Shown: one piece after another, positions 6,101-63,570 of the stretch
Numbering within the stretch: the first letter of the stretch is position 1
Layout: the number at the start of each line of letters is the position of its first letter
Made by a program: the position numbers and the translations under genes
The notes under the pieces: generated by a model
What the model saw: the letters and a program-made list of their open reading frames with translations, nothing else
Told to the model about the DNA's origin: nothing
Database searches by the model: none
Assembly: GCA_000934665.2 (NCBI GenBank)
Contig: JYFJ02001264.1
Coordinates: 1-64,000 of the forward strand
DNA from: Catajapyx aquilonaris
Taxonomy: Eukaryota
DNA length: 64,000 nt
Direction of reading: 5' to 3'

Positions 6101-6658
6101 GGCTTATTCACTTAAAGTTTGCTGATGGCCCCCACGTAATGATAGCCTATGTTTTTAGTCAATACCCCACCCCTATAATTTAGGCCCACGTTAGAATGCG
6201 TGGAGCTTTTGTGCCGGTAATTAGTTCGATTTTGTTCTCTGCTCTAGACCCCTCCCTTTTGTTTCTCACTGGAACTAGGCCCGAAGTCTATCACTGGGTA
6301 ATCCCCATCTGCCTTTGTCTTGCGCGCACCCACTGAATCAACCCACCACCGCCTCCCCCCATTTCTTTATCTCTGGAAATATATAAATATGCATGTTGCT
6401 GCCGTTGACTGAACCCCCTGATTAATTTATCTGGGAACTCGTTTCGAGGCTCGAGAAAATTGCAGGGGGGGGGGGGGNGTCTGGAGAAGTGTGTTTTTTT
6501 GTGCGTCCCCTTTTGGCAAACCCAAAGTCAGCAGATGAAGGTGTGAATTAGGCATGCAGCAAGATTGGAGTGATGGTTGGGTGTGCTGGTTGGACCACTT
6601 TGTTACCCTGCACTTATACTCATTGAACCCAGGGAGAAACGGAAGGGTGCTTGACGGC

Positions 6659-12427: not shown

Positions 12428-15400
12428 TCAGTCGGAGGTACCGACTTATGCGTGTGTCACTTTTTTTTGACACCAGCAACTTACCCAGTGTGTGTTCCTC
12501 CTCTAGAGAGCCCACTTCCTTGGAAGGATGATTATGTAAATGACATAATGTTGTCTGCCGTGTGTTAATGACGCGGCGTTTAGAAGGGAGCGGAGTTAGT
12601 GAGGCAAAAGAAGGAGAGTGAGTGAGTGCATGGGCTGGCTGGCAGATGAGATGAGCAAAAGAAGGCAAGAGCGAGAGGAAGCTTTGGGAAGTGGCTAAAC
12701 GAAGTTGCGCTGCAGACTCAATTTTGCGACGACCCCAGGGGTAATTTGGTAGTCATAAGTCGTTATGGGGGAGTTGCCGGGTGAGGAACGGGGTATAGCG
12801 AGGGGCATCCGGCGGAATTTGACAAAGGTTTGACTCGCTTATGCAAAATGCATCGGGAGCTTTGGATGGTGGGGGAATGACGAATCCCAAGCCGGGTATT
12901 GGGTGTTCTCTCTCTAGGGCGCTGGGCTGACCCGCAGTTTTTTCTCGCACAGTGATGCATTGCTTTTCTGCCTAGGAATGCTCCTCTGCCTGCTCCCTCA
13001 TAAAGCTTGACCAACACATAACCAATGGCATGGCGATCCATCATGGCAGACCCTTTTTCTGTGGTGGCGGCAACAGCAACGCCCTCTTTTTTTTCCGTCG
13101 AATAATATTCCAGGGGTTAAGTTTACGCGAGATAAATCTGCTCGGCTTCCAACCGAGGATTCTTGCGGTTCCAGGTGATTTCCCCTCAGCCAGGCTCGAT
13201 TAACCGAGCGGATGCGGCTAGGTAGGTTTTCTTTGTCGCAATGTCTCTGCAACCGCGAAGCTTGTTTGCATACGGCAAAAAATTGCGGTTTGTCGCAATG
13301 GGCTTAATTTTCCATTTATGGTAGGGTTTAACAGGTTTACGACGTATGGCAAATTTTGCTAATCAGGGTTGCCGTGACGCGGATTAATGACTAAGGCGGA
13401 TTGCTACCTGGGAACTCACGCAGGCACAAATATTGCGATTCCGGTTCGAGGAGGAAGTGGCGATAACTCTGGTTTCCCGGGGCCGCTTTTGGCGACGAAT
13501 TATGCTCAAAGTTTGGTGGGAGGAAATGTACAAACTAGTGTTTTGTGCACGACCTGTCGATGCTTGTGACTCTGAATTGGTTGGCTCGTTTGCCAAAATT
13601 TTCATGGGCCCGTTTCTTGTTAAAAACTCGTATATTTTTGCAAACATGCTGTTTCGGGCTGGGGTGTGTCAGCAATTTAAAATAATGCGATTTGTCATGC
13701 GAAACGGTTGCAGTCTCCTGCTTTTTTTGTTTTATCGCCAACGCCAATATTAAAACCTGTCCATGTATTCCCTACGTGTCTCTCATCGTGGGTATTAGTT
13801 GCAGTTCCTCCGCTACAAAATAATGTTCGCATTGTCTCCGCTTTTTGTCCATAAAACACTACACTGGCCAAATGGGTCCGGTCCTTTACAGGCGGTGAAT
13901 GCCAAATTGGCAGATTGTTCCCCATAAAAATGGGCAAGCCAGTGCACATACCGTGTACAGTTGGGAACAGATGTTCAATGCAGCGATTTCCTATATGGGT
14001 CCACCTTGGACAGTTTTGTCCATGCACACGTGAAGCCAAGGGGTACAATGACTAGGCCGCATCCAGGAGGAAAGAGGCCGTCATGTGACTGCAACGACGT
14101 CGTTGTCCGAGTTACTAGTATCGGGGAATCGGTTTTACGGACCGTTAATTCGGGGCTGGTCCTCCCCTGGATTTTTTTTTGGGAGGGTAGAGGTTGCTGG
14201 AAAATAATAACAGGACAGGTCCCGGATTCTGGAGTGGACAGTCAGACAACGGGGTGGGATTATATATAGAAGGTGTGGGGGCGGCAGTTTTCATCCTGCG
14301 CGACCCATTTACATATGAATCTGATTATTACTTGCCATGTTGTTGCAGAGGGTTGGTGGGTTTTGCAAGTTTGCGGATCTTCCCCTCCCACACCCATCGG
14401 GGGGGATTGCAATTTGGGATTTTTTTTTTAATCCGCGGATACAAACAAACGAACAAATCAGCCGGGCTTGGAAATTTGCGTCGGACTCCCACGATGGCTC
14501 ACGGGACACTAGCTGAACTGCACGTTTTCAAAGATAATGTTTGGTCGGATTAGCAGCATGAAACATACTGCTGTTAGTCATAAGCAAAAATGCAGTTTGC
14601 GGAAATTAATCTGTTGCGGAGTTGAATGGGATGCATTTTCGGGGTCTGAGAGGTTTCGTCACGTCCAGATGAAGATAGATTTCTGTTTTGGGTGCCTGTT
14701 GGGATAATGGTCGATTGGGATGGGAAGAATGGGGATTGCTGCTGTTGGAAGGGGACACATCTCTCTTCTCATCAAAACTCAATCGTGCTTTCCATTTGAG
14801 GCTTGATTCTTCCGAGGCGTTCGGTTCGGCTCACTCATTCCCGAGTTTGTCACTGTCAGATTTACAGATTTACGTGTCGAGCTCTCTCGAGAGGACCTGG
14901 CTTGAGGGGTCATTACTGGTGGGTCGTGCCATTTTTTTCCGATAAGGCTTGTGTTTGTTTGAAATTCTGCGGTGATGAGGTGAGAATGCGGCTTATTATT
15001 AATTATAGCGCTATTAAACCGTGGTAATAATCGATACAAGTGGCTTTGAATGTGGACATTTCACGGTTCCGCGGAAATTGTGAAAAGATGCGGGGAGTTG
15101 GAAAAAAATGGGTTACGACCCCCATGTGACGGCTATATGGATGCAAAACTCGGTTTACTTTCAGGGGTGTGCCCGAAGGCAAAAAAAAATCATACAACTT
15201 ACGGTGAATGCATACTTGTTGATGCTCAGTGAAGCGCCAAAAAAGCGAAGATGCTACAGTTGCGACGAGAGGCTTTCAGTTCGCGTAATGTGTTTATCGT
15301 GTTGGGGCAGACAAGGGAAAAGAGGCACGTAGAGAGTATATAACGAAATAGGGTATATTCCCAGGCCCTTTTCTAATGGACAAATATTTCCTTTCTGGCG

Positions 15401-15567
15401 GAATAATTCGATTACTTTTGCGACGTGCTCCGCCCTGAATCTCCCAGACTACCCATACCTTCCGCTTCCTCTTTGATTCCATTTCCACATAATTCTGTTT
15501 TTTGACGGGATCTGATATGAATAGACCAGAATAACATTTTCTGCAAACTGAAGACTCCGCTTGCACT

Positions 15568-15572
<5 letters not shown>

Positions 15573-15618
<46 letters not shown>
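15573..15618 (+). repeat. (TC)23 microsatellite
   Basis: Perfect dinucleotide run read directly from the sequence. Confidence 0.95.
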
Positions 15619-15625
<7 letters not shown>

Positions 15626-18600
15626 CAGGCCCGGAAAATACCTTTCGATTTTTTTTAAACTTCCAGTTTTGATTTAAATGACGACTTCTGGTGCGGGAGA
15701 AAACACCGTTATTGCCCCCTTTACCGTTCCTCAGAAGTTAGAACTTTTTTTTACACCGGTGTGCGCAGTGTGATGCACATAGCGTCGCTTCGCATCACAT
15801 CTGACGTACTACTTTATTCAGGCAAGCCCTCCTCCTCCTCCTCGAGCATCCAGAAGCAATTAATCATGCTACTCCGTATGGAGAAGAAGGCAAGCGCATT
15901 AGCTAGTCGGGGTGTAACAGCACGCCGGCACCAAAAATAATGACCGCACCAAAATAAAGTATGATAATAGGGCCTATTACCCTCCTCAAATTTTTCTCGC
16001 CATCTCAGACGAAAAAACTAGGCACTGCTCCGATTCGCATAAACGCTCTGGAATAAATCTGCATCAGCTAAATCCACAGAAAAAGAGGGGTTCACGATAG
16101 TTTCTTACTGCGGAGATGTTTTATTAGCCCAATGTCTAGTGGCCTATTATACAGTATATAGGAATGTGTTCTTCATTTTGTTCATTACAAATTGGTACAA
16201 AATGAAGCTAAAAATCAATTCCGGAATATCTGAAGTTGCGTTCATTTGAATTTTTTTGAAGTGAAAATCGGCCTTATTGTAGGAGATTCGTGTCAGTGTG
16301 CGAGATTCCGTTTCTGGCAGGCTGTTCGAGAGAAGAGAGGGAAAAATGGCCGTTATTCTAGAAGGACAGTTGGAAAAAAGCAGGGAGTTTGGGGAGGGAG
16401 GGTGTAATCTGGTAGCATGGGCTGGTGCACAGGGAGTTTTATCGCCGGGAAGAGCGGAAAACCAACTGGCCATTCTTCACCGGCAGCTCATTTCTCATCA
16501 GCTGTCATTAGGGAGAAGCTTCGATCCATCGGGAGGGGGGGGGGGAGTGCCCCTCTTATCCTCCGGTTCCTCCCCACGTCTTTTTCTCTCCTGCAATTTC
16601 GGCAAGTCCGCGACACTGATGTACGTCCAGGTTGAGCACAGCTTCACCACCATCTCCACCACCCCCCTCACCCAATCAGACCTATGCAAATCCCAGGGCA
16701 TGTTGGCCTTTTCTATACGCACAGGTTATTGACAGCCAATTCCACGTGGGAGCCATGAAGGAAGAGGACAAGTGACATTGATGACACTCCGGAGGGAACG
16801 GATCATTAGCCTCCAGGGATGAGGGGTGGTGTATAGGGAAAAAAACGGGGGGCCTTAATGTCATTCAGTAGCAATGTAATCCTCTCTTTTTTGCTATGCA
16901 TGCAATCCTTCGAGTCGATAAAGTAATTATAATAGTCGTTCGGAAGGCCCATTAAAGATTTGTTGGCACCTATCTTTAAACGACCTTGCCGAAAAGTTTT
17001 TTTTTTTCCTTCGGTGGGTTAGAATAAGGCAAAAGCTTTTTCTTTGTCGCCACCTGGAGTTTTGCTGCATCGGCTCGAGGCCCCCAGGTCGTTGGAAAAG
17101 CACTGATATTAAGCGCCGTCCTGGAGATGGAGATCTCTACTTAATTAAGTCGTTCCATAGCGCGTCACGTGAGGCTCCTAATATTCCCCCCAACGAGATG
17201 GAAGATTGCTGCAGAGTCCATCAGGGTTAGTCCACGATCACTTCCAAAACTTGATGTCTGCGCGTCCCTTGCACGCCAACCAAGCTGGTTATGGCCTGGG
17301 TCACACATCTACTATACTATATAGCTCTGGGGTTTGTGTGGTCGTCAGATGGGGGTGGGGGAGGCCTGCGGTTTGTAGTTGGGAGTCTTTGGTCATCGGT
17401 CATTGCCTCGGCCGGAGGAAATGGGGCTCAATGGCCGTCAACAGTTCCTCCATCGCTTTCTATATATCCCTCTCAACAGCCATTCGAGCCCCAACCATGG
17501 CCGCTTTCAGACCTTTTATCGTCACATTAGCGTCACGTATAACGCGACTATAATCTGCCGAACCTTTTTTTACGTGCTCTTCCTCGTTTTGAAATCTGAC
17601 TGTTCATTTTGATGCGTTCGAAGTCAGATGATTTTTTAAAAATTGTCTGCGTCCACAATATTTTCTCGAACTCCTTACCTGACGGAGTTAAGAAATGTCT
17701 TGCGTGTCTTGGAACGTTAGAGTATTTACTTTATTGAATCAGTTCCGTTTAAAGCTCTCCAAGGCATGTACTGTGCCAACCTGTTGAGATAGCATCTGTG
17801 AAACATTGTCTTGGAGGCAACCTGATCGTTTGATCACGTGAATGAAATTATTAGGGAAATGTATAGCTATGTCCTATAACGTTGTATGGCACTGTTTTGA
17901 GGAAGAAGGACCTTCCTACTTGTTTCATAATGGCATTTAAATAATGCCAATATCGCGCAGAAAAATAAACGACTATGACATTTTTGTGGATTGCATGTTC
18001 TGCTACGAGCTGTTAGGATACATTTCATAGTTTCAGCAACCAGACGCGAAATGCACCGTCTGATGGATGGTTGATAGATGACTATACTTGGCATACGTGT
18101 CCTCAACCCCTGCATTGTTCAGCCTCGATAGTCGCTTTTGGGAGCACATCGGTCAATGTATAGTAAAGAGGTAGAAAACACGAGCGCTCGTGATAAAGCG
18201 ACAGGAGCGTCACGGCCATTTACCATGAAAGCGAGCTCTTTGCAACAGCGCGTAGTCATGTCGGTGGCCAAGCTGGAAAAAAAGTTCAAAAAAAATAAAA
18301 AAGCGCTAGTAGGGTGGGCTTGAGAGCAGTAGGAAAACGTAAATAAATGATAGACCTTCGGGTCTTGCTCGAAATTGGCGTAATAGGGTGGCACACGGGA
18401 GAGCACCTCATTTCCAGGCGAGTTTGAAGAGGGGGGATTTTTCTTCATCTCCGCCAAGGACTCTCCGCTTAAGTGCGACTCCATCACTGTCAAGACTACT
18501 CGGAATGGGCCTTTTCCCTCCCGACAATATTTACCTCTCACAAAATTCTAATGCAGAGTTTTAGCATCGTTATGTTGTGGAAAAAAGGAGGGAGGCTGCT

Positions 18601-29100: not shown

Positions 29101-32100
29101 AAGACATAGTCAATTAGTATGATGCAGCAAACAATCCGTATAATCTTCCCCTTTTGAACTGGGGACTTGAGCTGTGCACCACCTCGTACGTGTGTGTGCA
29201 GAGTAGACCCAGGCACCGACACGGGGAGTGTTTAACGGGGAATCTATTCCTATTTGTAAGGCAATTTCTAGGACAGTGTTGCCAGTAGTGAATATTAATA
29301 GGAGGGGAGGGCAGTTGCGGTGGAAAGGCCGGCGCTTCCCCCGCAGTTTAGCGCCGGCGCCCCCCTTCATTTTCCCCCTTGATTAGGGAATAATTACCTT
29401 AGCATGGGTTGCGAAAGGCCATTAAGAACTATTAGAGCCTGGCGCCAAGGCCAGCGGCTAATGAGTTTGGATTGGGAGGGAAGAGTAGCTCAAGTGTCCG
29501 CAGTCTGAGAAGCGACTACTCTGGGAAGGGGCTGCCTGCCACTGAAACCCGCTCAACTCGAAGCTGCTTTACTGCCCTGGCCGTAATCCTCCGACTGCCA
29601 ACATGGCCCCCTCCAGACGACGGATTTTCTGCGATTGACGAGTTTCCTTCGCCAGATTGGGCCGCCAACCCACCCCTTTTCCTCCTCTTCTTTCCTCTTC
29701 CAGATTCCCCGAATTGGATGACCCCCCCTGTACTTCACTCACCCCCTAATTCCGGTGCTTCCTGCGGACGTACGACCGCGTCTCTTCCCACCGTGTTATT
29801 CCCCCGGCCGCCAAGAACCCGCCCTGCTTTATGATAACAAGCCTTCACGAGGCTCATCCCCCTTCAGAATTACAACCCTGCACTTCTCTTGCGCTCCCCT
29901 GCTTTTTATTGGCCCGGCTCTTCAATCCCTTCAAGTGCTCCGCCTTGTTTGACTCGAAATGATTGATTTCTTGGAAGGGGTACGTACGACTCTATTATCA
30001 GTTTAATCAGTTTCACAACTGCAATTGTTGATCATTGACATATGTTTCCGTTCATTGCGCAAGTTCGCGGTTCTATCGAATGAGAAGTCCTAGAGTAGGA
30101 ATTAGGAGAGGTGAAAAATGGATATGATATCAGCGAGCCCCAGGAGAGCCCACCTCAGCTCCTGGAGTGGAATAGAATGAGCCATCATTTGGGTTTTTAT
30201 GCCTGCGAGTCCGTCTGTAAAAAGGCTTCGTCAGCTTATTGCCTTGCATTTCTCGCCTCCTTTCGCAGGTTATGTCACGCTCATTAACGTCAAACCTCCT
30301 CTGGCTGTTCCCGAATGAACGGTTTGCTTCTTCGGCAGAAAAACAAATTGAAAGTCTCCATCATAATTTGCACTATTTTTTTTGGGACAGCTAGTTACAT
30401 CTAATACTTTTTTTTTGCTCCTCTGGATATAATACCTGGCGGACAAAAGGCGCTCCCAAGAGTGTGCCAGAAAACTAATTGCTGCATGCTGGCAGCCCTT
30501 TTATTCGCAGGCTGCTGAGCTCACAATACAATTTCGAATCGCGGCAGGATTCTTGTAATCCCTTCGTTGATTCGATTTGGAAATTCCACCTTGATTTTGG
30601 GGAAGCAAGGCTAGGACTCTAAATCAACCGGAGGATATCAACCTGGGCCGAGGTAATTGGGTTGCTACATGAAGTATTCCATTTCACCGCAGTCTGGCCG
30701 CCCTCATGTTTAACCAACCGCTTGCAGGACCAACCACAAAAAAGTGCTAACAATTCTTCGCTGGGAATTACCTGGCGGTGTTGCCATTTTTCGAACAAAC
30801 AGTTGATGCCAAAATTCTGTTGGAATTTCGTATTGTTAGGTTGCGGCTAAAAAGGATGCTCGTCTTTGCTATGAAATGGGCTGGTGCTGATTCTGGATTA
30901 GACCAGAAGGGTTCGCCCATTAGTGTAACTCCAACAGACACTGCTCTGCTTCTGCCATTCTTAGGAGATTGCTGCTGCAGTGGCCCGGATGACATGGCGG
31001 GCCTGAATTATGCAACGAAATAAGCTCAAAGTTTGCGAACGGTGAGGCACAAAAGGGGGTTTCCCCTCCCCTCAAAACCTTCCCTCCCAGTTCCCCCGCC
31101 AGAGGGAACCGAGAGAGAATGTTTCGGATAATCGGGCTAAAGAGCATAGATCCAGGGATGAATTATTATTATGACAGGTTTACAACCGGAATACGCATAT
31201 TTTCCACCGCAGATAGTTGTGTCACGCGGGGCGCTTGAGCCTCCCTTTCTCCTTCCTCCCTTGTGATTTTCAAAGTTATGTGCACTTCCTGTGATCATTC
31301 CTCGGCTGTTTGTAAGGCCTGTCTGGGGCTTCCCGTGGTCGGGTAGGATGTTTCAACAAGCGTCACTCATTAAATAAATAGTGTTTACGCCAATTTATGT
31401 GTATACCGCCAGTTCAAGGGAGTCGAGGAAGTTATGGACTGTTTACACTGCAATAAGTGTGGTCCTGATAATCGCTTCTCTAGAGTGGTTCCTGGAATAA
31501 ACAATCGGGCTGTGGTGTCATCTTGTATTTAATGGATTTAATGGGTATTCATTTTTAAATGTTTTGTTCTAGCGTGATTTGGTGTGGTTTTGCTTGTTAT
31601 TAATTCGTTTGTTGTGCTGAAACACCTGGCATATTCACGCTTTGCTCTTTGCCCCTGTTCATGAAATCATAATTGCGAAAGCATATTGAGTTATTTCATG
31701 CATGCGGGGTGGGCAGCCCTGTATTGCTCCTGTAATGCGATGGCATTAAATTCTCAAACGCCACTACATGTTAATTGCATTTTGCACTCTGAGCGTATTA
31801 GTTCAAGTAGTGATTTCATGCCACAGCGTTGTTGTTGTCGCCATTTTTATTGGCGCCTGCAATATTCGGGACACCCACGCATTAACTTGTTTTAATTGTC
31901 TTTTGTGTTTTTGGCGAGTTACACCTGGCAGGCTGTGACCAACTGCGAACCAAGCTCTATGTCGACCAAGCCTTATGTAATAATAAACTCCATGTGATTA
32001 ATCTAGTCGGTGTCGGCTGGGATTGACCAGGTGGCTGCACCCAGGGTGAAAAGGTGAGGCTGCGAGCCCAGGCCCCCTCCAGAGTTATTACGTTATGACA

Positions 32101-34350
32101 CCTGATGGTTTACGCCTGCTTGCCCCATACCATTAATCAATGTCCTAATAGCCCTGCCTATCATTTTCTAATAGCTTCAACCACAATTTTAGCTCCCTAT
32201 ACTCTTTAAAAGCGACCGGCTCCTTTTGGAACAATATTTTGAGTTATTTGTTTATTTATTTATTTGACTCCCAGTAAGCGATTTTTTTTGCTATGCTCAT
32301 ACAGTGTCCATAGGGTCAGAGGACAAGTGCACCATATTGTGTGCATAGATAGAGATGTTTGTAAGGGGGTCGGTGGAAGAGAATCGAAAAATCGATGATC
32401 GAGCTCAGGTGTGGCGGGATTCCAGGCATGATGGCGGGATATTGGAGAGGAAGTGGAAGCAGATGAGCGGCAAGTCGGAAGTGTACAGCATCAGATGTTC
32501 TTTCCTGATGCATTCTTTATCGTTGGAAAGCCTAGCCTCCCCACCCTTTTAGACTCCAATTTGCCAGCGAGTGCAACCTTGGCACGTCCGAGCAACGGTC
32601 AATTATTTACCAGTGCGCTATTCCTGCCTGTATACTGTTGTATTCTGGCTCCCAGGAATTACATTAGCCAGGAGAAAGGAAAGGCCTATATACGATGAAC
32701 GAATTGTTGTGATTCTTGGCACAGCATCAGAGGCTCGTATACTCGGGCTGATTTTGTTGAGGCGGGACCTGAAACGACAGCGCCTTGTAAGTCAAGTCGT
32801 GCTGGGTCCCATGCTACATTGCCGTAATTCCACTCGGGCATTATTTCCGGAAGAGGACTATGTTGCAATGTCCCGTTCGGCCCGATCGAATATTTTCATT
32901 GGTAGCAAACTTAACATGAAGGGAATCGTGTAACACAAATTGTTAGTGCAAACGGGATTGAACCGGTTTGTTGGGCGAAATGCTCTGTTTTCTCCTATAG
33001 AGTTGCTGCAACTGATGTCGTGAACCTTTTAATTGTTAGTTACAATATTGGCACTGTGTCGATTCGAAGCAGAAATACAACAATCATATTTAAATTCACC
33101 TTAGCATCAAGCTTTTATGACATTACTGCTGATCGTTACAGGTAACGACGCGTAACTAACAGTGCAAGTGTGCTAATCTCATTGTCCTAATGGCACTGTT
33201 GTTATGAAAACATACCTGTAGTAAATGTAAATATTTTCACTGGCTAGATTTTCGGAGTCCGTCAGATTTTTTGCACGTTTGTGATGGGTTTGCAGGAACC
33301 ACATGTTTATTTTGTGGTTTCTCTAAAAAGTGTGTTTGCCCGCTTGTTGTCCCTTTGCCACGATATACCGTATGTATACATTTTAACAAGAGAAGCTAAA
33401 TATATCACGAAGGTGTTTAGGATGGCGTTACGACCTGTAGCCAGGTATTAAAAATGAATTAGGACGAGTCGTACAAACAATGGTTTAGCATAAGCCCTGG
33501 TTTGACCTAGTTATTAAATGTTGGCAACAGTGAGCTGAACCATTAACAACGAGGACATACACCGGGATTACTGAAGGTGACATCGTCAGAGTTTCAATCG
33601 AGCTTGTGCGCTGTTTCTTTCATTTGATTAGTTAATTAATTAGTTGGTTTGTTTATTTGCGTTCATCATACCTGACCCAATCAGCATCCTTTACCTACAT
33701 ATTTATTTTCAAAGATTCAGGTTCTGCGACATCCTTTCACGTCGCAGTCAATGAGAATTGCAGCGCAACAGCCTGTTATTGACGCGGGGAGCTACAATAT
33801 CTAGGCCATGTAACAGGTGCCATTATACTGTTGCAACGTGCAACATTAATGTCCGGAGAACATCGGAAACGACATTGATGTATGAATGATGTTTCCTGTA
33901 ACACTGTGATTTTAGTACTTTCAAGCGGCGGAGACCCTGTTAACGCTTAGTGTAACTGCCTGCCTCTTTGCACAGCACGCGAAGAACCAGACCCAACTGC
34001 TTACACGACACTCTTGAAATAGCCTGCACGCAGCAAATACCACGCGTGAAATAATTCTCCAACTTGGAAGCTATTACAATGCAGATAAACTCATTAAAGG
34101 CATGCTTCCACCTGCTCAAGATGCCGACGGTGGCAGCTAAAATGGTCAGTTGTGTAGACAAAATAGCAAGAAGATAAAGTAACAACACGGAGCTGTTGCA
34201 ATGGATCTTATTAGAGTCTTTGTCAATCAACTCCGTGATGACATGTCCGTCTTGATGGGATGACAATACATCGCAGAATCTTTCCGGTGTTCCGGTGTTG
34301 GTGACGTTGACATACTTTTACCACCATCAGCACCTCTCTAGTAATTGGCC

Positions 34351-34946
34351 TTATGTGTTTGAGCTGAATGATCTTCTGCACCCGCGTGTCGCACGATTCA
34401 TCCCATTTCGAGTCATTCTCTCGTGCAACCATCTCCGTACCGAACCAGCAGGACTGGAATCATCTCCGTCCTCCTCTTCTGCGTCTACCGCCACATCTCC
34501 CAGCAACATGTCCGGATCCATCACAACAGTATCGTCATCGTCGGTGACGTCGTAATAGAAATAATCATCTTCTGTTCCCGAGGCTCGTACGCTCCTCAGG
34601 ACAGGACTGCTCGATCTGGTCCGAAAGAGGCTTCCTAGCAGTGAACTCGAGGGGCTGCTGGTGCTTGATGACGCGTACATGGTGATTGCGTGGTCTTCCA
34701 ACTGTTCGTATTGGTCTACCTCCTGGTTCTGCCATAGTTCTGGCTCGTTCACAGCCATGCTGGTGGAGGAGGATGGCGACGAGGGCCGCGGTCTTCTGCA
34801 CTTGAACAGGTTCTTTAATTTACCTAATTTGGAGTGTCTCTTTTTCTGCCGGTTTTGGCCGTGGCGACGTTCTCCGACGTGGCTCACTTCGTCGTCTCCT
34901 TCATAGCCAGCGTCGCCGGACGGCACGTCGCTCCGGCTTTGAATAC
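34351..34946 (-). CDS. Nested antisense gene, second coding exon (596 nt); with exon 1 gives a 222-aa Ser-rich/acidic, probably disordered hypothetical protein
   Basis: Longest ORF in the supplied track (191 aa from GTG 34926), extendable to the acceptor aattccag|GT ATT CAA. Protein-like compositional blocks: basic RQKKRHSKLGKLKNLFKCRRPRP, Ser runs and acidic EDDYFYYDVTDDDD / DAEEEDGDD. It lacks the homopolymer runs typical of the surrounding intron. The acceptor pyrimidine tract is weak and the 3' end is uncertain. Confidence 0.68.
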
Positions 34947-35332
34947 CTGGAATTGTCTGCTTGTGTCAAATTCATAACAGGGGTGAAGCACATGAGCGAA
35001 ACACAGTTGGTGTTTGGTATGCACCTCAAGAAGGAACAAAAATACGCACATTGTCGTTTGAAGTTTGAGCTACCACTTATGAGACACAATATGTGCAAAT
35101 ACTGTGGTATTTTTCTTGCAAGTTACTGACTTGACAGAAAGTGTACACTTGATTTCGACCAAAATGTGACTGTTCAGAAGTTCATATGTTTCTTTGAAGC
35201 ACATAAGCAGCAGGAGCTTTAATAAGTACGTATAAGGGAAAATGTTCATGCATGACATTCATAATGACTAACCAACAGTGTCGTTTAGCTCGTATGCGAC
35301 TGCAATTGAATAGCACGACCCAGGAAACTTAC

Positions 35333-35405
35333 TGCGTAAACTCCTTACAGAACGTGTTGATTTTGTACTGCCGAGATCACGTTTGTCCGGAGGATTGTCG
35401 TCCAT
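35333..35405 (-). CDS. Nested antisense gene, first coding exon (73 nt, MDDNPPDKRDLGSTKSTRSVRSLR plus 1 nt), hypothetical protein
   Basis: Minus strand gcgATGG start in good context with an in-frame TAA 13 codons upstream. Ends at the consensus donor CGCA|gtaagt in phase 1, which matches the acceptor at 34947-34948 and gives a continuous Ser/Arg-patterned junction STRSVRSLR-S-IQSRSD. Confidence 0.6.
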
Positions 35406-35633
35406 CGCCACAGATTTTGACAAAAATACAACATTCTTCTGTTACACATCGTAATGCGCATATCCGAGCAACGGACTCGACTTGTCATTGTCGTCTTGTG
35501 TTTTCTCCGAGTTTGATCTAAAATTTTGTGCGGGATGCTGAAGGAAGGAATAGTTTTCCGAAAAAATAAAAGTGGGTTAGAGAGTGGGATGTCAATGCGA
35601 TTCCGTGGTCGAGGATTATCGGCTTGGTCCGTC

Positions 35634-35686
35634 TGGCGGGGGAGGTTGCGGCTGCACAAGGGCGAGGTTCCGACCTCCCCCCGCCA
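35634..35686. repeat. GC-rich inverted repeat / hairpin
   Basis: TGGCGGGGGAGGT (35634-35646) pairs with ACCTCCCCCCGCCA (35673-35686): 13 bp with one bulged C, extendable by wobble pairs. Confidence 0.75.
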
Positions 35687-38192
35687 TTAGAGTAATGGCT
35701 TAATGGGATTATGTCACAGATTGTGGCAGGAACGAGTGGTGACAAGGAGCGAGGCAGAGCAGGTCGGGGATTATCCCGAGCGGCGGTAATGGAGGTAATT
35801 GGGCATCCGGGTGACTTTCCGGACCCACTTGGCATTCCGGCCGCCTTCTGTACCCGGGATGCGTGTGTGTTGGAGAACGGGCCTTGATGGCAAATGTCAC
35901 GGCCTGCACTAATCCTGACTGCCGGCCAGCCACGACCCGCATCCAATTGCATTGGAATGCGGGCGACACCTAGGACACTTCAACCCCCTCTTTCTCCGGA
36001 TGTTCCGGACCCTACCCAACTCCAGGGCTCAGGATCTTTCCAATCAGGAAATAAATTTTGAGTCCAACGGATGATACATGCAGGCCGCTATTACTCGTGA
36101 TTGCCTTATTTGGAAATGTGTGAACCTGTCATGCGGAAAATGGGGATACCCAATCCTGCGGTACAAAATTACTTAACGCTCTCGCAATCCTTCAGTTTCA
36201 TTATGGCTGCTGATATTAAAATCCGCATGTTGGCTATAATCGGGGAATTATTTCAGTTGCTGGAATCCAAATGTTTGTTTAAATTTGAACCAGATAGTCA
36301 TGCTTTATGGTGTTGTATACCGTACTGTGAATGCTCTCTATACGGATATGCCAATATTTTTTTGTTGAATTCAGTAGGTTTCTCCAGTTTTGTTTACTTA
36401 CGAGCTAGTCCCTCTTTATGAGGTGACAAATTGTGCAAGTGGCGACAGTGTTTAATAAACATATTTTTTCAAAGAATGGGATAATTTGGCAAACACGCAG
36501 CCGAACGGGTGGCGATAAAAGAAAAATTAGCAGGCTGGAAAAAAACTTGGATTACCTACTGGCTCGAGGAGAGACGGCGGCGTGTCAGAAAAGAAAATTA
36601 TTAATGACGCGAAAATCCTGGTGCGAATTGAAGTGCCAAAAGGGTAAAGGGCTGGAGGGTTGGGTGATTCAAATGTGGGCCACGGGGCACCCCTAAAATC
36701 GGCGTTGGAGCCATTCATCAACGTCAGCCAAAATGGCGGCTGGTGCCCTTGCTCCTTGGGCTAAGCAGGTCAATAATTTAATCACCACTGTAGTTTCCGC
36801 GGAAGAGAGGTTGTGTGTCCATATTTCAGCATCGTCCCGTGGACACTGCCACTGCCGCAAGCAGATAATAAACTGTCGGCCACGCTCGCGACTTTGGCTT
36901 GACTAAGCTGCACTGTTAACATTGTTGACTGGCGGCCCTTTTATGCGTGAGAGGCGCCCGGGGGGGGGGGGGGGGGNTGATTCAAAGTTTTATCGCCAAC
37001 CGTTTTAATGGCTGCCCTGGAGTGAACGGCCTTCAGTTTTATCCTGACTATCGAGGCCAACCCATGCGCCTCTCATGCCTGTCGGGTGGGCTACTTTACA
37101 GGCGCTTCATGGCTGTAAGACTACTCGTAAACGCTCGTGAATAATATTCATCTGGGTTGACACATTATTGCACAACCCCGTCCATTTAGGCTTGGGTGTA
37201 CCGCTCAAACTTTAACCGTGAAACATTTACTATAGCCCACGAAATTAATTGTTAGCAATGCCTTGTGCACAGCACTACAGGCTGTAATATACGGTTCGGT
37301 TCAAGCGTTATTAACGCATTTGATGTCTTTACGCAACCTGCAGTGGTCAAATTACAGCCGAGGGGCAGCCACCTACATCTGAGTCGGTTTTGTAAGGGAA
37401 AACTTTCCATTTGCAGGAACCCCCGAGGGATTCCGGTGTCTTTAAAAATGCGTCAAAGCGAGCGTCACCATCTAGTTGTGAAAATAGCATCCCCCCCCCT
37501 CCCCCCATCCCCGCATTTGACGGCCAGGAAGAGCCGGCTTTACGAATGGATCCTGGGCGCTGAGGGATGAAAAAGCGAGGAATGTGTCGCGGGGAAAAGC
37601 GAGGCAGACTAGTCGCTGGATTTGGGTCTGATGGCAGCAGCTTTGTGCCAGCGGGGAACCACAATCCACTTCTGGGCTCAACTTGACCCCATCCACCACT
37701 CGACGCATATATATGCGGGCATATCACAAGGGTGTGTGTGTGTGTAGAAGGGAGAGGGTGTGTGGGGGGTAGGTTTCATTTCCGTTCCATCCGCGAAATT
37801 CCCAGCTAATTTCCGGCCGCCGCTCCTCACCTTCTTTGCGTGTCCAGGCGATGACCAACAATCCCTTTCCTTCTTCTTGAATGGCCTTCCCCCCCTATGC
37901 CCCGTGTAAATTATCCGGGCGACAGCCTCCCCATCTCTGTTGTACTGTGCGGCACACTGTGGGGACCATTGATTGCGCCGGAAATTGCCCAATGCCGGCG
38001 CCCGTGTTTACCAGGCGATAACACGACTTTAAAAATTCACGTGCTGCAGCACTGTTAAAACATCACCAGGAACGGTGCAGTAAACTGAGGAGTGTCACTG
38101 CCCCCCAGCTCTAGTCGGAATGGTTCCCACACAATGGGAACCGCCGCGGACCTAGATATGAATTGGGAGATAATTTTGTCAGCCCCCCCCTT

Positions 38193-38233
38193 TGCCCCCC
38201 CTCTTTTTTTATTCAACAAAAAAGAGGGGGGCA
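38193..38233. repeat. Inverted repeat / hairpin, 16-bp stem with one bulged C
   Basis: TG-C7-TC-T7 ... A6-GA-G6-CA around a short ATTCAAC-containing loop. Confidence 0.8.
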
Positions 38234-39091
38234 GGTGAGTGAATATTAGTCAGAAGCGTTGGCCATCTGCGGGGCAAGAGCAATGATTCGGTTCCCACAG
38301 CCCACATGCCACTTTGCATGCGAGGCATTTGCGATCTATTGACAGTCTGCCTCTACAAAGCCACGGATAATGAAATTAACCCCCCCTCCCCACCCCTTGC
38401 CACCCCTACCCCCCCTGCACTCTCCGGCCTGCGACCAAGCCCACCTCGCCAACTGAGCACTTGCATCACGGTTGCACTTGCATGAAATTGAACACTGGAA
38501 ATGGCGCGGAAGAGAACTGCGCTCAAATTGAGCGTCTCGCCATATACCCTCCCGCCCCCATAACTAATCAAATACGGTCGCTTTTTTGTTGCTCTGGTAA
38601 GCATAACTGCCACTTATCCATTCACCTGTAGGATTGGGTTAATTTCGGCACAAAATTACGGCCTTCCATATCTCTGCACTTTTTGATATTAACACCAGCA
38701 CGCATACAGACGTTGTAGCCTATATGTGCCCAGGAAGATGAAATGTTTTAAATATTAAGGGAGAGTTACTGTACATTTTTTGTAAGTTAGACAATTCAGC
38801 ATTCAGAGCTTCCCTGTATTTTGAAGCCCCTTCCGCTGACAGAGTCCCAGCAAGCTTGTGCGTGCTGCGGCCAAAAGGAGGCACTTATTGTCACTCTGGC
38901 TGAAAACGAACGAAGCGCATATTGCACCGCACCTCCCACATTAGAAGTTTGATGGGAGAGTGTGGGCACGTAGTCAAAGTGCAGGCGCAGTCAACTCTGT
39001 CGGTCCATGGCTTTTAGACCGAGCGACGGCGCTAGAAGGATGAATAGAGCAGCCAGCAACCTATACATCGTTGGGCTGGTGCAGCACTTTC

Positions 39092-39110
39092 AGAGAGAGA
39101 GAGAGAGAGA
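39092..39110 (+). repeat. (AG)9 microsatellite
   Basis: Perfect dinucleotide run read directly from the sequence. Confidence 0.9.
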
Positions 39111-41275
39111 ATAAGAGAGGCTGGTGCAGTTCGGATGTCTTTGGCCAGGGTGCCAAAACAGCAATGGATTGGAGGCGGCGCTTTTGTGGGCGCAGCACTG
39201 GCTGGTCCCCATTAAAATGACAAAGTTGGGAATGCGGAGAGCCCAGTTGAGGAATGGCCAAACACGATTCCTAATCCCTGGGCAGGGCCACATGCATGAC
39301 TGCCCTCGACCTCCATTATCTCCTCTTTGCACCCGTTCGTGGGACCATTCAGCCGGCCTAACCCCTGGCGCTTCTATATAGCTACCCAAATCTTGGCTCG
39401 CCCACATCTCATTTGCACGATGGACTTGTGTTCTAGCTTACTCTCCAGAAGTCTCAACCCCCGGCGTCTCATATCGCTCCTTACCGGCCTGCCTCTGCTC
39501 CTTTTGTGAACAGACAACTCCCCATTTATACTAATGCCTTTCCCCAAGTTGCGGGGTCTTTGTCTGTCCGAAACTTGCAACTGTGCGATAATGCACATAA
39601 CGCATCCGGCGTCTTGGCACTCTGGGGGCATTATTAATGCCGGGAACGTATGTCAAACCGGTTGTACCGGGTGTAGGCGATACGATGAAAGCGTATGGGT
39701 GCAATTAACTTGTACAGGACACGCAGGAGATATGTCCAAGTTGTCGGGAACATGTTGAGAAAGTGGTGCGGGAGGATGAGGAATTAAGCTGTGCTGCCTT
39801 CGTTTTGTGTACGGAAGTTGCATTTCTGGGCTAATAAAGGAAGCCTTGAATTGAGGAATAATCAGACTCAGGCAGCGTTTGAAGCGGAAATGAACTCTTA
39901 TTAATTGCAGCCTTTAATAGAAGTTAATGAGCGAACATGGACCGCTTCGTGTAATTTCACCAGGTTGGCCTAAATTCACCCGTTTTATGGTATTTAAATG
40001 TCGACATTATGATAACTCTTATTTAACTACCTATATTTCAAGCACTTATCTACAGGACTGTAATTGTTCTGGCAGACAAATGACTCGGCCGTCAGGTGTA
40101 ATACCCGACCAGATTACTTTCCTAACTCAATTTAGACCAAACTGTGACTGATCATTCTGCATTTCAGCACATCAGTCTAGCGTTGAAATTCTGTAGAGTA
40201 TTTTGTAATAGTATGTATCCTAACATATTATGTACTGTACGTCCACATGATGTGTTTTTTTGAAAACCCCAGTTAGCAACAAGCAGGTCAACCTCGACAG
40301 TGCAAATCGCTGTCATGCATGCTCAGCCATATGGGGCCCATACTCAGAAGCGGAAGTGCATTAGTTCTCAGCATGCAATGCACTATACTTGCGCACGTAC
40401 TGACTGTCACTCGGCAGACATGCGGTATTTGTGCACTTCGGTTGTGTCCGCTGATTAATTTAGTTTTCACTTGTGCCGGTACAAAAATATCTCGCTTGCA
40501 ACTGAACAAGTGGAAACCGGGGTCATGAACCATTTTTATTGTCTAGTTATTGTGGAATCACGGCAGCACGTTCCGTGTAACTATAGTCGAGATGCGACAT
40601 TACAGGATATTAAGCTGTGTTGTAAATGCAAACCCGTCCTTCATCACCGGTACTGTTTTGCAAGGGCGTGTTTGTGTAATGTTTCTCCTAGGGGTCTGCG
40701 ACCCATCTGAGGAATTTGCGCGAACCGCCAGCTGAAATTACCTTCGGAAATGTCGCCAACTGGAAACTTGCGATATGAGAGTGAAGTTGGGAGACAGGGC
40801 ATTAGCTAAGTACATATACCCTTGTGCCGGAATGGTATTGGCACTCCATGGAGTAAGCCTACCTTATAGTAATTGAGACAGGAGTTGGGGAGGTGATATC
40901 CCCCAGCAACACTTTGTGCCCCTCGCCCAATGGGGGAAATGGTACCGGGAGCGAGGAAAGCGAAGAACTTTCCGCCCGCCCGTACGTTATGTCTGACTCG
41001 GAGTCATTTCCGAGGCGTCTTCGTCTTACCTGGCTGCAAGGAAATGAGAGGTGTGCTTTGAAAGGCCCCGTCTGGAAACAAGCCACGTTGCATGCAGGCA
41101 GCCCCCCAGAGCTCTTTGATTCCGCAAACAGACAAGCCCAGCCCCAGACTTCGCAGTCACACGCCTTCCTCCAACTGCCATCATCAAAGAGTTACCAGAA
41201 CGAGGGTGCAATGCATCGCGAATGAACGCTCGTGATTGGAAACGAGTCACTGATTTTGTCTATCTTTTTTCACAG

Positions 41276-41448
41276 GTGATCGTGGTTCCGCATTCCCATA
41301 ACGATCCGGGATGGCTCAAGACCTACGAGGGGTATTTCCACGCTCAGACCAGGCAGATACTGAACAACATGGTGGAAAAACTGCAGCAGTATCCCAACAT
41401 GACGTTCATATGGACGGAGATCTCGTTCTTCTCCAAGTGGTGGGAAAG
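41276..41448 (+). CDS. alpha-Man-IIb: Golgi class II alpha-mannosidase (GH38), internal exon A (173 nt, phase 0 to 2)
   Basis: Acceptor tatcttttttcacag|GTG and donor GAAAG|gtaagt. Encodes [57 protein letters not shown], with the GH38 metal-binding HxHxDxGW motif. The family call is firm; the IIb/ManIII subfamily call rests on recalled similarity. Confidence 0.96.
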
Positions 41449-44400: not shown

Positions 44401-47400
44401 CCGGGCACGAATGACACTTTTCATTGCAATGACACGATCAATTACTTTTACGGCCCGCCGAAATTAAACGTCCGCTTCTCTCTAAGCGGAATAGGCAAAA
44501 AAAAGAACCGGGGGTATAATTAACCTTAGTATGTTTTTAATTTATGCCATTAAAGACTATGATGGATCTATGAATCATTGATGGCTTTTGTGTAGTAAAC
44601 GGGTAACTTGATTGCATTTTCAAGTCGATTATATATAAAAAAGAAGGATGGGAAAACTTCTTTCGTCCTTTCCTTTTATTTATTTTTCCTGGGGAAAAGT
44701 AAACGCTGATTATTTTACGGTGTTGGTCTTAGCTGTCTGGATCCGGGGAAAAGCGAGCCCTGGAGCTGATTTGGCCTCAAAGAGAAGATCGTCATATATA
44801 CGCGTAATTGGCTGCAGGTTCTTTCACGCTGCCAGGAAAAGCTGCGGTTATATTGGACAACAAGACGAGTCAGCCGGATATATACTTCAGGAGATCACAC
44901 GATGCCGTGTCAAAAAAAAGTGTATATTGCAACCCTCGAGCCCAATTTACTCCCAAGTAAATTGAATCCAAACAAAAAAAAAAACGTTTTGGCTGACTAC
45001 TTTCGTGGTTATTAACAGGTGACGTCAGCTGTATAGCAAAATCCGGGGAACAGATAGTGTGTTTGGAGCCTTGGGGTGGCAAGTGCTTGTACAGCACAGG
45101 CTGAAGGAGGCTTTTGGGATGGAATCAGCTCTGTGGAGCCTGTAGATGTGTCCTCACAAGAGACGCACTTCGGCGCTGTTTCGCTCGGGGGCCATCGCTA
45201 TCTGGGATTAGAGCCGAATTCTATTTTGGCAAGAGGAGAAGGGGGGTGGAGGAAAAGTGCGCAAGTTCGACTTAGAGTGGAGGGGGGGGGGGGGGGAGGA
45301 ACTGCTTTTCCCTCCTCTGAGCTTTTCTATCCGCCTGTTTCCTCTCATCCCATTCGATATGCCGAGTCAGCCATTTGCCGCTGGCCGATTTTGCAAGGCC
45401 CCCTGTGCGAACAAGTCACCGGGGCGCCAAAAAGGGCTCTTGCCAACTCCTTCTATCGCTGCTCAGCTTCCTCTTTCACTCGGAAAAGGAATAGGTTCTT
45501 CCACAAAGAGATTTCCGTTCTTTATGTCCTGAATGTTTTTTTTTTCCTTGCAGAGAAGGGGGCTGTCCTTGCTGTAAGCCCAACATGTAGTACATGAAGG
45601 TTTAATCTGGCTTTTACTGAATGGGCGGACATGCTTTTTTTTCAGGACTGGCTTTCACGCGTCAGACTTGGTAAAAGATTACACGAAGATTTTCTGACAT
45701 TAGAGATGCAGAGCTGCTTTCCCCGATGTTTTGTGTATAAGCGGAATAATAGGTTTATGGAGTTTGTGTGTATCGAGAAAAAGCAGACGAAAATTTTCTC
45801 ACAGCTCCGGTTTGGGATGATACCAGTTTTTCCCCCCTCGAGATTGAAGTAGCGGAGCTTTCTGAATAATGTTTATATAATGGTGCCGGTTCAAGATTTT
45901 GCAAAGTAGAATGTTATCGCGGTGCATGAGTGATGCCAATGCACACGAGGTTGTCTCCTGCTGATATTGAGCTTAGTGCTTGCCCTGGCCCTTGCTGCGA
46001 ACACCGTGCTTTTCCTTTCCAAAATTGACACGGACAACTGATGGATTACATCTAGGATGTGCGGTACATGGCCCTGTTTCAGAATGCAAACATGAAGCTC
46101 ATAAACTTGTTCCAATATAGCCCTCACGCGAGGCCTCGCAGAAAAGGTCAACACAAGTTTCAGACACGTTCTGTAAATCGGGGTGACGTCACAGTTTATT
46201 CGTTGTTCTGTATAGTGCGATACTGAACTGCAATAATTCGCGGGGTAACTGGCTGGCAGGACAGTAAAATTAAATAGCGCGGCAGCTGAATCTGACAGCT
46301 AGGTTATTTTTTTTCTCGAAAGCGATTAACAACCCTGCGGGTGTGTTTGGTGGTTTAGACCGCAAACCTCCCATTGGTTGCCTCCTTTTGCGAATTGTCA
46401 ATTTTTTTTAGCATGCAGATACCCTTTTTGCCGTTTCATACGCTGCAGGCACACAATTTTGGGTGGAGGTTAGAATGAGCCGAAGTTTATTTTTCCGGGA
46501 GAATAATTTTCTCTTTCGCATATTTTTTTATATTCTTCGGCAGATATCCGGTGATCCAAAAGGCCGCGATCCTTTTCCCGTTCGAAATTCACGAAACAAT
46601 CAGAGAGAGTTTTGAGGAGGGGTTCGTTGGTTGAATGGTTTTATTGGGGCGGCATCCGGTATCGATCCGTGGTGCAAGATTTCTGCAAAAGGAAGGACTG
46701 CCGCAGAGCCGAAATACTGTACGTCTAACTTGGGCACAATATCTTCAAACGGGCGAGTTTTTAATCGCATTCAGGGAAACTTACGGTGCTGGTACATCAA
46801 ACGGAACAGAAGACGCTGCTTTTGAGTTATAGACGAGTTTCGGGAAATTCCAACCTTATATATAAGACGGTTGCCGATATTGGGCAACTTTCAAACACAA
46901 ACCCGGCTTTGTTTCTTTTTTTTAATGCGGATTGTAAGCATTGGTTTAGTATACTGTACAATAATAATGAGGATAATCCTGTGGTATACCTTCGCTGGCC
47001 CAGATTCAAGCTCCTTAATGGCAAGTTTCCCAAGAGAGCAGGTGTTGATCCTCGAAATGATCTGGTTTTCCTAACCTACGTTGACCGGAAACAAGCAAAT
47101 GCAGGTAATGTGGGAGTTCTGAGTGTTGTTGTATCGATCTAGTGCTGGAGAGAGTCAGGTAGAGCTTGCAGAGAGAGAGAGAGAAGCAAGCAGTATATTC
47201 GTTCCCTTCCATATCCTTGGCTCGGTTCCGAATGGCAAATTCAAAGAGTAAATTTTGCACCGGGGGAGGGGATGGGGGGGATGGAGCTGCCGGAATTCGG
47301 CTTACTCTTTTTCTTTTCTGGCAGAGATTTCCGAACATTTGGTGGAAACCGCCAAAACCATCTACTCTTGGCGACCGTTGCCAGAATACCACATGCGCGG

Positions 47401-57097: not shown

Positions 57098-57231
57098 TGC
57101 ACATCCGACCAAGAGACGTGTGGTGAGAGAGCTGCTGGATGCTGGAAGGCTGGAGATTGCTACCGGAGGATGGGTGATGACCGACGAGGCCATTGTCCAT
57201 CTCTACGCCATGCTGGACCAGCTCATAGAAG
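57098..57231 (+). CDS. alpha-Man-IIb: Golgi class II alpha-mannosidase (GH38), internal exon B (134 nt, phase 2 to 1)
   Basis: Acceptor ttttttttcctattgtacag|T and donor GAAG|gttaga. AG from exon A plus T gives Ser, then [44 protein letters not shown], with the GH38 GGWVMxDEA motif. This frame is not in the ORF track. Phases match both neighbouring exons. Confidence 0.95.
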
Positions 57232-62691: not shown

Positions 62692-62978
62692 GGCACCAGT
62701 GGGTGAAATCGAACTTGGGAGTGACTCCCAAGTCGAGCTGGTCGGTCGATCCCTTCGGACACGGTGCCACGGTCCCTTATCTGCTACAAGAAGCCGGCAT
62801 GGAGAACATGGTGATCCAGAGGATTCACTATGCCTGGAAGCAGTGGCTGGCCGAGAAGCAATTGGGCGACTTTATGTGGCGGCAGAGGTGGGACACATCG
62901 GGGAAACACGACATCCTATGCCACAACGCTCCGTACGACATCTACTCCATCAAACATTCATGCGGGCCACATCCACAG
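62692..62978 (+). CDS. alpha-Man-IIb: Golgi class II alpha-mannosidase (GH38), internal exon C (287 nt, phase 1 to 0), with catalytic nucleophile
   Basis: Acceptor ctttttttgtacctcag|GG and donor CAG|gtatgt. Encodes (G)HQWVKSNLGVTPKSSWSVDPFGHGATVPYLL...QRIHYAWKQW...[12 protein letters not shown]. The DPFGH Asp is the GH38 nucleophile. Confidence 0.97.
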
Positions 62979-63033
62979 GTATGTCCTAGGTACCTCAATA
63001 CGTAACATGTAATAATTCTGTTGTACGTCGCAG

Positions 63034-63570
63034 GTGTGCTTGGCATTTGACTTCAGGAAGATACCGGGCGAGTACACTGAGTACACCCTGGAAGCGGTGC
63101 CTATAACCAGCCGTAACGTAAAGGCAAAAGCTGAGCTTCTCCTGGAGCAGTACGGCCGTACCGCCTCGTTATTCCCACACAACGTGGCTCTGGTGCCAAT
63201 AGGCGACGATTTCCGTTACACCCACGATGTCGAATGGGACCAGCAGTACCGCAACTACAAGATGCTCTTCGACTACGTCAATGCCAACTCGGAGCTGTAC
63301 AATGCGGAGATACAGTTCGGAACGCTGGATGACTACTTCCGGACGGTTCGAGAGCGGACGAAGGCCTTCCCTAGTCTTCAGGGCGACTTCTTCGTGTACA
63401 GCGACATCTTTTCCGAGGGAAGGCCCGCGTACTGGAGCGGATACTTCACCACCAGGCCTTACTGGAAGCTGCTGGACCGGGAGCTGGAGGCTGCACTCAG
63501 ATCCGCAGAGATCCTGTACGCCGTCTCTTTGAACCGAGCCAGGCAGCAGGGGCTTAACCGTACTGTACAG
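63034..63570 (+). CDS. alpha-Man-IIb: Golgi class II alpha-mannosidase (GH38), internal exon D (537 nt, phase 0 to 0), with acid/base catalyst
   Basis: Acceptor ctgttgtacgtcgcag|GTG after a 55-nt intron, donor CAG|gtgagt. Encodes [14 protein letters not shown]...VPIGDDFRY...QFGTLDDYF...GDFFVYSDIFSEGRPAYWSGYFTTRP...RSAEILY. GDDFR carries the acid/base Asp. The gene continues beyond the window. Confidence 0.97.

Follow-up and report, generated by a model that had tools for sequence, protein, structure and literature searches.

Does the minus strand of this 64,000-nucleotide stretch of the Catajapyx aquilonaris genome (contig JYFJ02001264.1, positions 1 to 64,000; hereafter, the window) carry a protein-coding gene nested antisense in an intron of a mannosidase gene, or has a long reading frame merely opened there by chance? 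A first-pass annotation of the window had proposed the gene, with two coding exons, perhaps a further exon upstream, and no recognisable family. We find that every coordinate of this model holds, whereas comparison with shuffled sequence and with control ORFs does not confirm that it is more than chance. On balance, we consider it moderately probable that there is no functional protein-coding gene at this place and that the frame is a chance opening in non-coding, probably intronic DNA.

The candidate model lies on the minus strand and consists of 73 + 596 = 669 nt, that is, 222 codons and a stop. Its parts and the features next to it are as follows.

34351..34965, minus strand: longest stop-to-stop frame in the window, 204 codons, coordinates including the TAA; proposed exon 2 lies within it
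34351..34946, minus strand: coding part of proposed exon 2, 596 nt including the TAA at 34353-34351; GC 0.54, CpG observed/expected 1.09
34947..35332, minus strand: proposed intron, 386 nt; GC 0.39, CpG observed/expected 0.61; donor GTAAGT from 35332
35333..35405, minus strand: coding part of proposed exon 1, from the ATG at 35405-35403 to the A at 35333; 73 nt, that is, 24 codons and 1 nt
35345..35488, minus strand: upstream ORF in another frame, 47 codons; runs across the proposed start codon to its own TAA at 35347-35345
35538..35580, minus strand: acceptor-like site with CTAAC at 35580-35576, 12 of 14 pyrimidines and a final cag; the first exonic base would be 35537
33702..33707, minus strand: nearest AATAAA 3' of the candidate's TAA, ~645 nt past the stop

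The ATG, donor, 386-nt intron, acceptor, TAA, total length (669 nt, 222 aa) and in-phase join are all exactly as had been described. Exon 1 would encode MDDNPPDKRDLGSTKSTRSVRSLR, and after the splice the frame reads S-IQSRSDVPSGD...; the start codon has G at both -3 and +4, the donor matches GTAAGT perfectly, and the proposed acceptor is ccag/GT, with its AG at 34948-34947 and G 34946 as the first exonic base. Two nearby alternative AGs, said to end in stops, both enter a frame that stops after 14 codons. The CTAAC at 35580-35576 and the pyrimidine-rich acceptor (12/14 pyrimidines) reported before 35537 are likewise present, the site reading ...ttccttccttcag up to the would-be exon. An exon begun at 35537 would, however, place four out-of-frame ATGs (35488, 35461, 35449, and 35434, all in the 47-codon upstream ORF) ahead of the proposed start at 35405. 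On the 3' side, the AATAAA listed above is one of the 42 that this strand of the window contains.

The length of the candidate frame is no more than chance provides. When the whole window was shuffled 100 times with its dinucleotides preserved, 34 sequences had a longest frame of at least 204 codons, and the mean longest frame was 194.7 codons. When the local 901 nt were shuffled instead, 16 of 2,000 sequences reached at least 204 codons, from which ~0.6 such frames are expected over the ~71 stretches of this size. The window has other long frames without a family match (193, 184, 179, and 170 codons), and the GC-rich patch that holds the candidate is also open in other frames on both strands, over 113, 99, 88, and 84 codons.

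The splice model was set against chance in the same way. With any GT accepted as donor, the real sequence allows 248 two-exon open models; with a consensus donor it allows a single one, the model of the first-pass annotation. An in-phase ATG exon followed by a GTRAGT donor arose in 17.4% of 1,000 shuffled versions of the upstream kilobase, and one with GTAAGT in 9.6%; the corresponding counts upstream of 41 real control ORFs of at least 120 codons were 4 and 1. The perfect GTAAGT donor is paired with a weak acceptor, which has 6 pyrimidines in 14 positions against 12, 12, 12, and 9 of 14 at four acceptors of the host gene. A joinable combination of ATG, GTAAGT, and CAG turns up by chance in about one in ten tries of a motivated search. 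As for the upstream acceptor-like site, the whole window has 33 sites as strong as the one at 35538 on its minus strand and 41 on its plus strand; from 35538 to 41270, the minus strand offers a single consensus donor, at 36401. Promoter words were scanned on the minus strand from 35400 to 37500 with Drosophila consensus words, a scan that is uninformative either way: no TATA, DRE, or Ohler motif 1 word was present, and one Inr-like word lies at 36607.

Codon usage and phase patterns were compared with those of the host exons and of the other ORFs of the window. In total codon score, from a model trained on 382 host (mannosidase) codons, the candidate ranked 5th of 92 ORFs and was the best outside the mannosidase, a point against a chance origin; this advantage is due to its amino-acid composition and GC. 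Scored on synonymous choice only, it obtained 0.000 bit per codon (rank 13 of 206), and three overlapping frames of the same patch scored higher. Held-out host exons reached 0.278, 0.185, 0.03, and 0.205 in leave-one-out scoring, and the candidate obtained -0.03 to 0.024 in its own frame and -0.07 to 0.04 in the other five. There is no frame signal in its synonymous codon choice, although codon bias is not required of a young or weakly expressed gene. The chi-square of nucleotide by codon position was 6.8 per 100 codons, against 22.5 to 51.3 for the host exons (rank 40 of 91), and the three-base periodicity was 2.3, against 2.3 to 8.8 (rank 12 of 91).

Dinucleotides were less evenly spread over the three phases. 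Over 197 codons of the candidate, the dinucleotide-by-phase chi-square was 60.1 (df 30, p 9e-4), higher than in any of the 9 control ORFs of at least 149 codons: GA stands 33 times at the start of a codon, against 16 and 19 times in the other phases, CG lies 24 times across a codon boundary, against 11 and 12 (phase counts GA 33/16/19, AC 10/25/9, CG 11/12/24). Over the full frame, p was 0.0054 and the rank 8 of 91, and four unrelated frames scored higher. Under a null conditioned on an open frame, consisting of those 661 of 12,000 local shuffles that hold an ORF of at least 160 codons, the candidate's chi-square was reached by 3.5% and its length-normalised excess by 6.1%. Aspartate makes up 10.2% of the exon-2 product against 2.4% in control ORFs, and serine makes up 15.7%; the aspartate is specific to the frame, with 20 residues against 4 to 7 in each of the other five. 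GC falls from 0.539 in exon 2 to 0.394 in the proposed intron, a step that only 1.3% of 1,261 pairs of adjacent segments equal; it is not independent of ORF selection, because long open frames stop where AT-rich DNA starts. Among the non-mannosidase frames, the top dinucleotide-phase periodicity belongs to a 125-codon frame at 46765-47139 (plus strand), in the 15.6-kb mannosidase intron (chi-square 84.8, p 3.9e-7; three-base periodicity 3.84); it has no Pfam family and no PDB match.

The statement that no family can be assigned to the product was confirmed at each level of search. No Pfam family matched the candidate at E<=1, the protein search returned zero matches among 8,000 scored candidates, and an exhaustive read of 1,835,955,588 representative proteins (1.84 billion) gave none at E<=0.001. 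In metagenome contigs, none of 312 pattern matches was confirmed by tblastn, and an exact 28-base word from exon 2 had no match. The PDB sequence search gave nothing significant (best E 0.56), the ESM Atlas gave no usable match (recognition 1210, a value that says nothing on the reality of the gene), and Rfam had no match in the whole window. A transposon or viral match, which would have told against an orphan gene, was likewise absent from the searches made, namely, Pfam on the frame and its neighbours and repeats within the window. These blank searches rule out, at the level of sequence comparison, wide conservation of the gene and origin from a known mobile element and leave a lineage-restricted gene compatible with the data. 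The absence of a homologue outside a narrow lineage, as expected of an orphan gene, is weak evidence here: the closest library protein shares only 77% identity with the host enzyme over a conserved segment, and with no close relative in the libraries a missing homologue weighs little against a lineage-restricted gene.

If the candidate frame is translated, its composition and hydropathy point to a disordered product. The hydropathy of 0.386 lies below the boundary between order and disorder (0.426), and basic and acidic blocks alternate along the chain. AlphaFold2, run without an alignment on exon 2 alone, gave a mean pLDDT of 51.5 and a pTM of 0.18, with one helix at residues 165-187; this prediction fits disorder and would fit a non-protein equally well. 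A peptide SVRSLRS, common to the exon 1/2 junction of the candidate and to a frame at 29436-29834 (plus strand), was dismissed as chance, the codons being different and the two regions unrelated by blastn and tblastx. The candidate frame has no tandem repeat.

What lies around the candidate depends on the host gene, a GH38 Golgi alpha-mannosidase II of which four exons are seen in the window, on the plus strand between 41.3 and 63.6 kb.

41276..41448, plus strand: first host exon in the window, with a strong acceptor ahead of it
57098..57231, plus strand: host exon
62692..62978, plus strand: host exon, translated GHQWVKSNLG...
63034..63570, plus strand: host exon, translated VCLAFDFRKIPGEY..., reaching into the Alpha-mann_mid domain

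Pfam matches to PF01074 (E 2.4e-18, 7.3e-25, and 1.8e-12) and PF09261 (4.6e-08), all above the curated cut-offs, place the enzyme in GH38: Glyco_hydro_38N, with its HSHND metal-site motif in the exon from 41276 onward, is followed by Alpha-mann_mid. A homologue search returned 453 proteins at E<=1e-10 among 1,899 candidates, the closest being alpha-mannosidase 2 of Orthoptera and Blattodea (77% identity), from which the organism would be an insect of hemimetabolous type or something near to one. Diaphorina citri had the top E-value and was rejected as nearest kin, as an internal duplication in the record inflates its score. In that record (P0003, alpha-mannosidase 2x, LOW QUALITY PROTEIN), residues ~199-312 are repeated at ~297-410, a duplication of ~100 residues that is likely an assembly or model artefact of the record. 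The host introns within the window measure 15.6 kb, 5.5 kb, and 55 nt (62979-63033). The candidate is on the other strand from this gene and has no sequence relation to it.

The candidate lies 5.7 kb upstream of, and antisense to, the first host exon in the window, and its nesting hinges on where the preceding host exon is. The strong acceptor at 41276 implies that host exons exist upstream. Of 38 homologues whose sequence ahead of HSHND is 100 residues or longer, 37 have one or more of three stem motifs there (QPxW in 34, an EYWDxxF-like motif in 37, and FExR in 36), the exception being a Timema protein with an aberrant N-terminus. In six frames of the whole window, these motifs gave two matches, both on the plus strand upstream of 41250 and neither in a mannosidase-like context, and tblastn of homologue N-termini against the plus strand upstream of 41250 gave nothing significant (best E 0.025). 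With the stem exon missing from 1-41 kb, the upstream host exon is probably 5' of the window, and the host gene probably also has an intron of more than 41 kb. We infer that the candidate likely sits in a host intron of at least 41 kb. The earlier description of the gene as nested in a mannosidase intron is accordingly likely. In this region, a stretch at 2710-2811 (plus strand) resembles the exon that carries HSHNDPGW, with 10 of 36 residues identical and a tblastn E of 0.025 with several homologues; we take the likeness to be probably due to chance rather than a pseudo-exon. If real, it would mark a decayed copy of the mannosidase HSHND exon, 38 kb upstream.

Taken together, little in the candidate clearly exceeds chance, and the evidence that can be tested gives the gene no positive support. 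What can be demonstrated for a chance origin are the chance rates themselves, the acceptor's weakness, and the fact that the frame has neither codon bias nor relatives; counted against a gene are a chance-level ORF length, the weak acceptor, the upstream ATGs, the absence of a synonymous-codon signal, and the absence of a relative. Mild positives for a gene are the dinucleotide-phase periodicity (p ~0.04), the GC step, and the frame-specific richness in Asp and Ser, to which the in-phase consensus donor may be added, with a chance rate of ~0.1. In the explanation that we favour, the 204-codon frame would be a chance opening in non-coding DNA, in a patch richer in GC (0.54) that most likely belongs to the large upstream intron of the Golgi alpha-mannosidase II gene, at least 41 kb long, and the frame would yield no functional translated product. 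A 64-kb window of such composition is expected to offer a frame of 200 codons together with a joinable ATG exon roughly every other time. Like known chance frames, the candidate has a length within the range of the shuffled and the real non-coding frames of the window; unlike typical control frames, it is somewhat elevated in dinucleotide-phase periodicity and in Asp. If it is such a frame, its value is cautionary, in that models of this kind should enter an annotation only once RNA or comparative data back them.

The strongest competing explanation, which we regard as possible but doubtful, is that of a real, young, lineage-restricted gene with two or three exons, lying antisense within the host intron and possibly born de novo from intronic DNA. 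Its product is predicted to be an intrinsically disordered protein of 222 residues with alternating basic and acidic blocks, laid out as a basic, NLS-like block (exon-2 residues ~25-55), two acidic blocks (~121-162), and a basic C-terminal helix, and such a layout would suggest a protein that works in the nucleus and binds basic proteins or nucleic acid through its charge; transcription of the candidate might interfere with its host. The ATG/GTAAGT/CAG model, which is exactly in phase, argues for this gene, as do the periodicity (p ~0.035-0.06 under the conditioned null), the frame-specific Asp/Ser richness, the exon-like GC beside an AT-rich proposed intron, and the hydropathy below the disorder boundary, and the strong acceptor at 35538 with the sole consensus donor at 36401 would permit a 5' non-coding exon. 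On the other side stands all the evidence for a chance ORF, as well as a structure prediction whose low scores are compatible with a non-protein too.

Known nested genes bear on the same gene from both sides. In D. melanogaster, according to PMC3814207, nearly 10% of genes take part in nested structures, and of the nested genes, 71.27% lie on the opposite strand and 43.91% have their highest expression in testis, in keeping with the background given in the first-pass annotation, that nested genes are often antisense and often testis-restricted. However, conservation across 12 Drosophila species holds for 88.13% of those nested genes, against no relative here. The candidate resembles the nested genes of that survey in lying antisense to a conserved housekeeping gene, probably within a long intron of it, and in being short, with few exons and without wide conservation; it differs in that theirs are annotated and expressed, whereas the candidate has no relative and no clear coding signature and the upstream exons of its host were not seen in the window. 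With de novo and orphan genes that arise from non-coding DNA (reviewed in PMC6542195), it shares the lack of a homologue and of codon bias, a disordered, low-complexity product, and an intronic or non-genic site; a de novo call, however, rests on transcription or translation and on an alignable non-coding orthologue in an outgroup. If true, this gene would add another orphan to those that lie antisense within long insect introns, a common arrangement, and be of local interest for the annotation of the species and for the study of de novo gene birth.

An improbable third explanation is that of a decayed remnant, now without function, of a once longer gene, a retrocopy, or a mobile-element ORF: the next frame 3' (33943-34317, minus strand, 125 codons) takes up the reading frame of the candidate again after three stops within 34 nt and has a coding-like periodicity (p 0.0028) and a GC3 minus GC of 0.10, and the CpG observed/expected of 1.09 in the candidate ORF is above the window mean of 0.79, but neighbouring frames agree in phase by chance in one case out of three, neither frame has a homologue, Pfam on the 150 ORFs of at least 88 aa in the window found no family above cut-off except in three mannosidase exon frames, and the region has no repeat or second copy within the window by repeat search, blastn, and tblastx. 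The frame at 33943-34317 has no Pfam family and no significant PDB match either (best E 0.27), and contains a hydrophobic stretch.

Some further features of the window were recorded along the way. The only tandem repeat scoring at least 60 is a (CT)26 microsatellite at 15569-15619, translated as an (ER)n run in a frame at 15297-15737 (minus strand), where Pfam matches to Atrophin-1 and DUF3915 are sub-threshold. Single Ns stand at 6478, 36977, and 48592; those at 36977 and 48592 fall within G/C homopolymer-like runs (translated GGGGGGX and PPPPPP) and probably reflect uncertain homopolymer lengths in the assembly.
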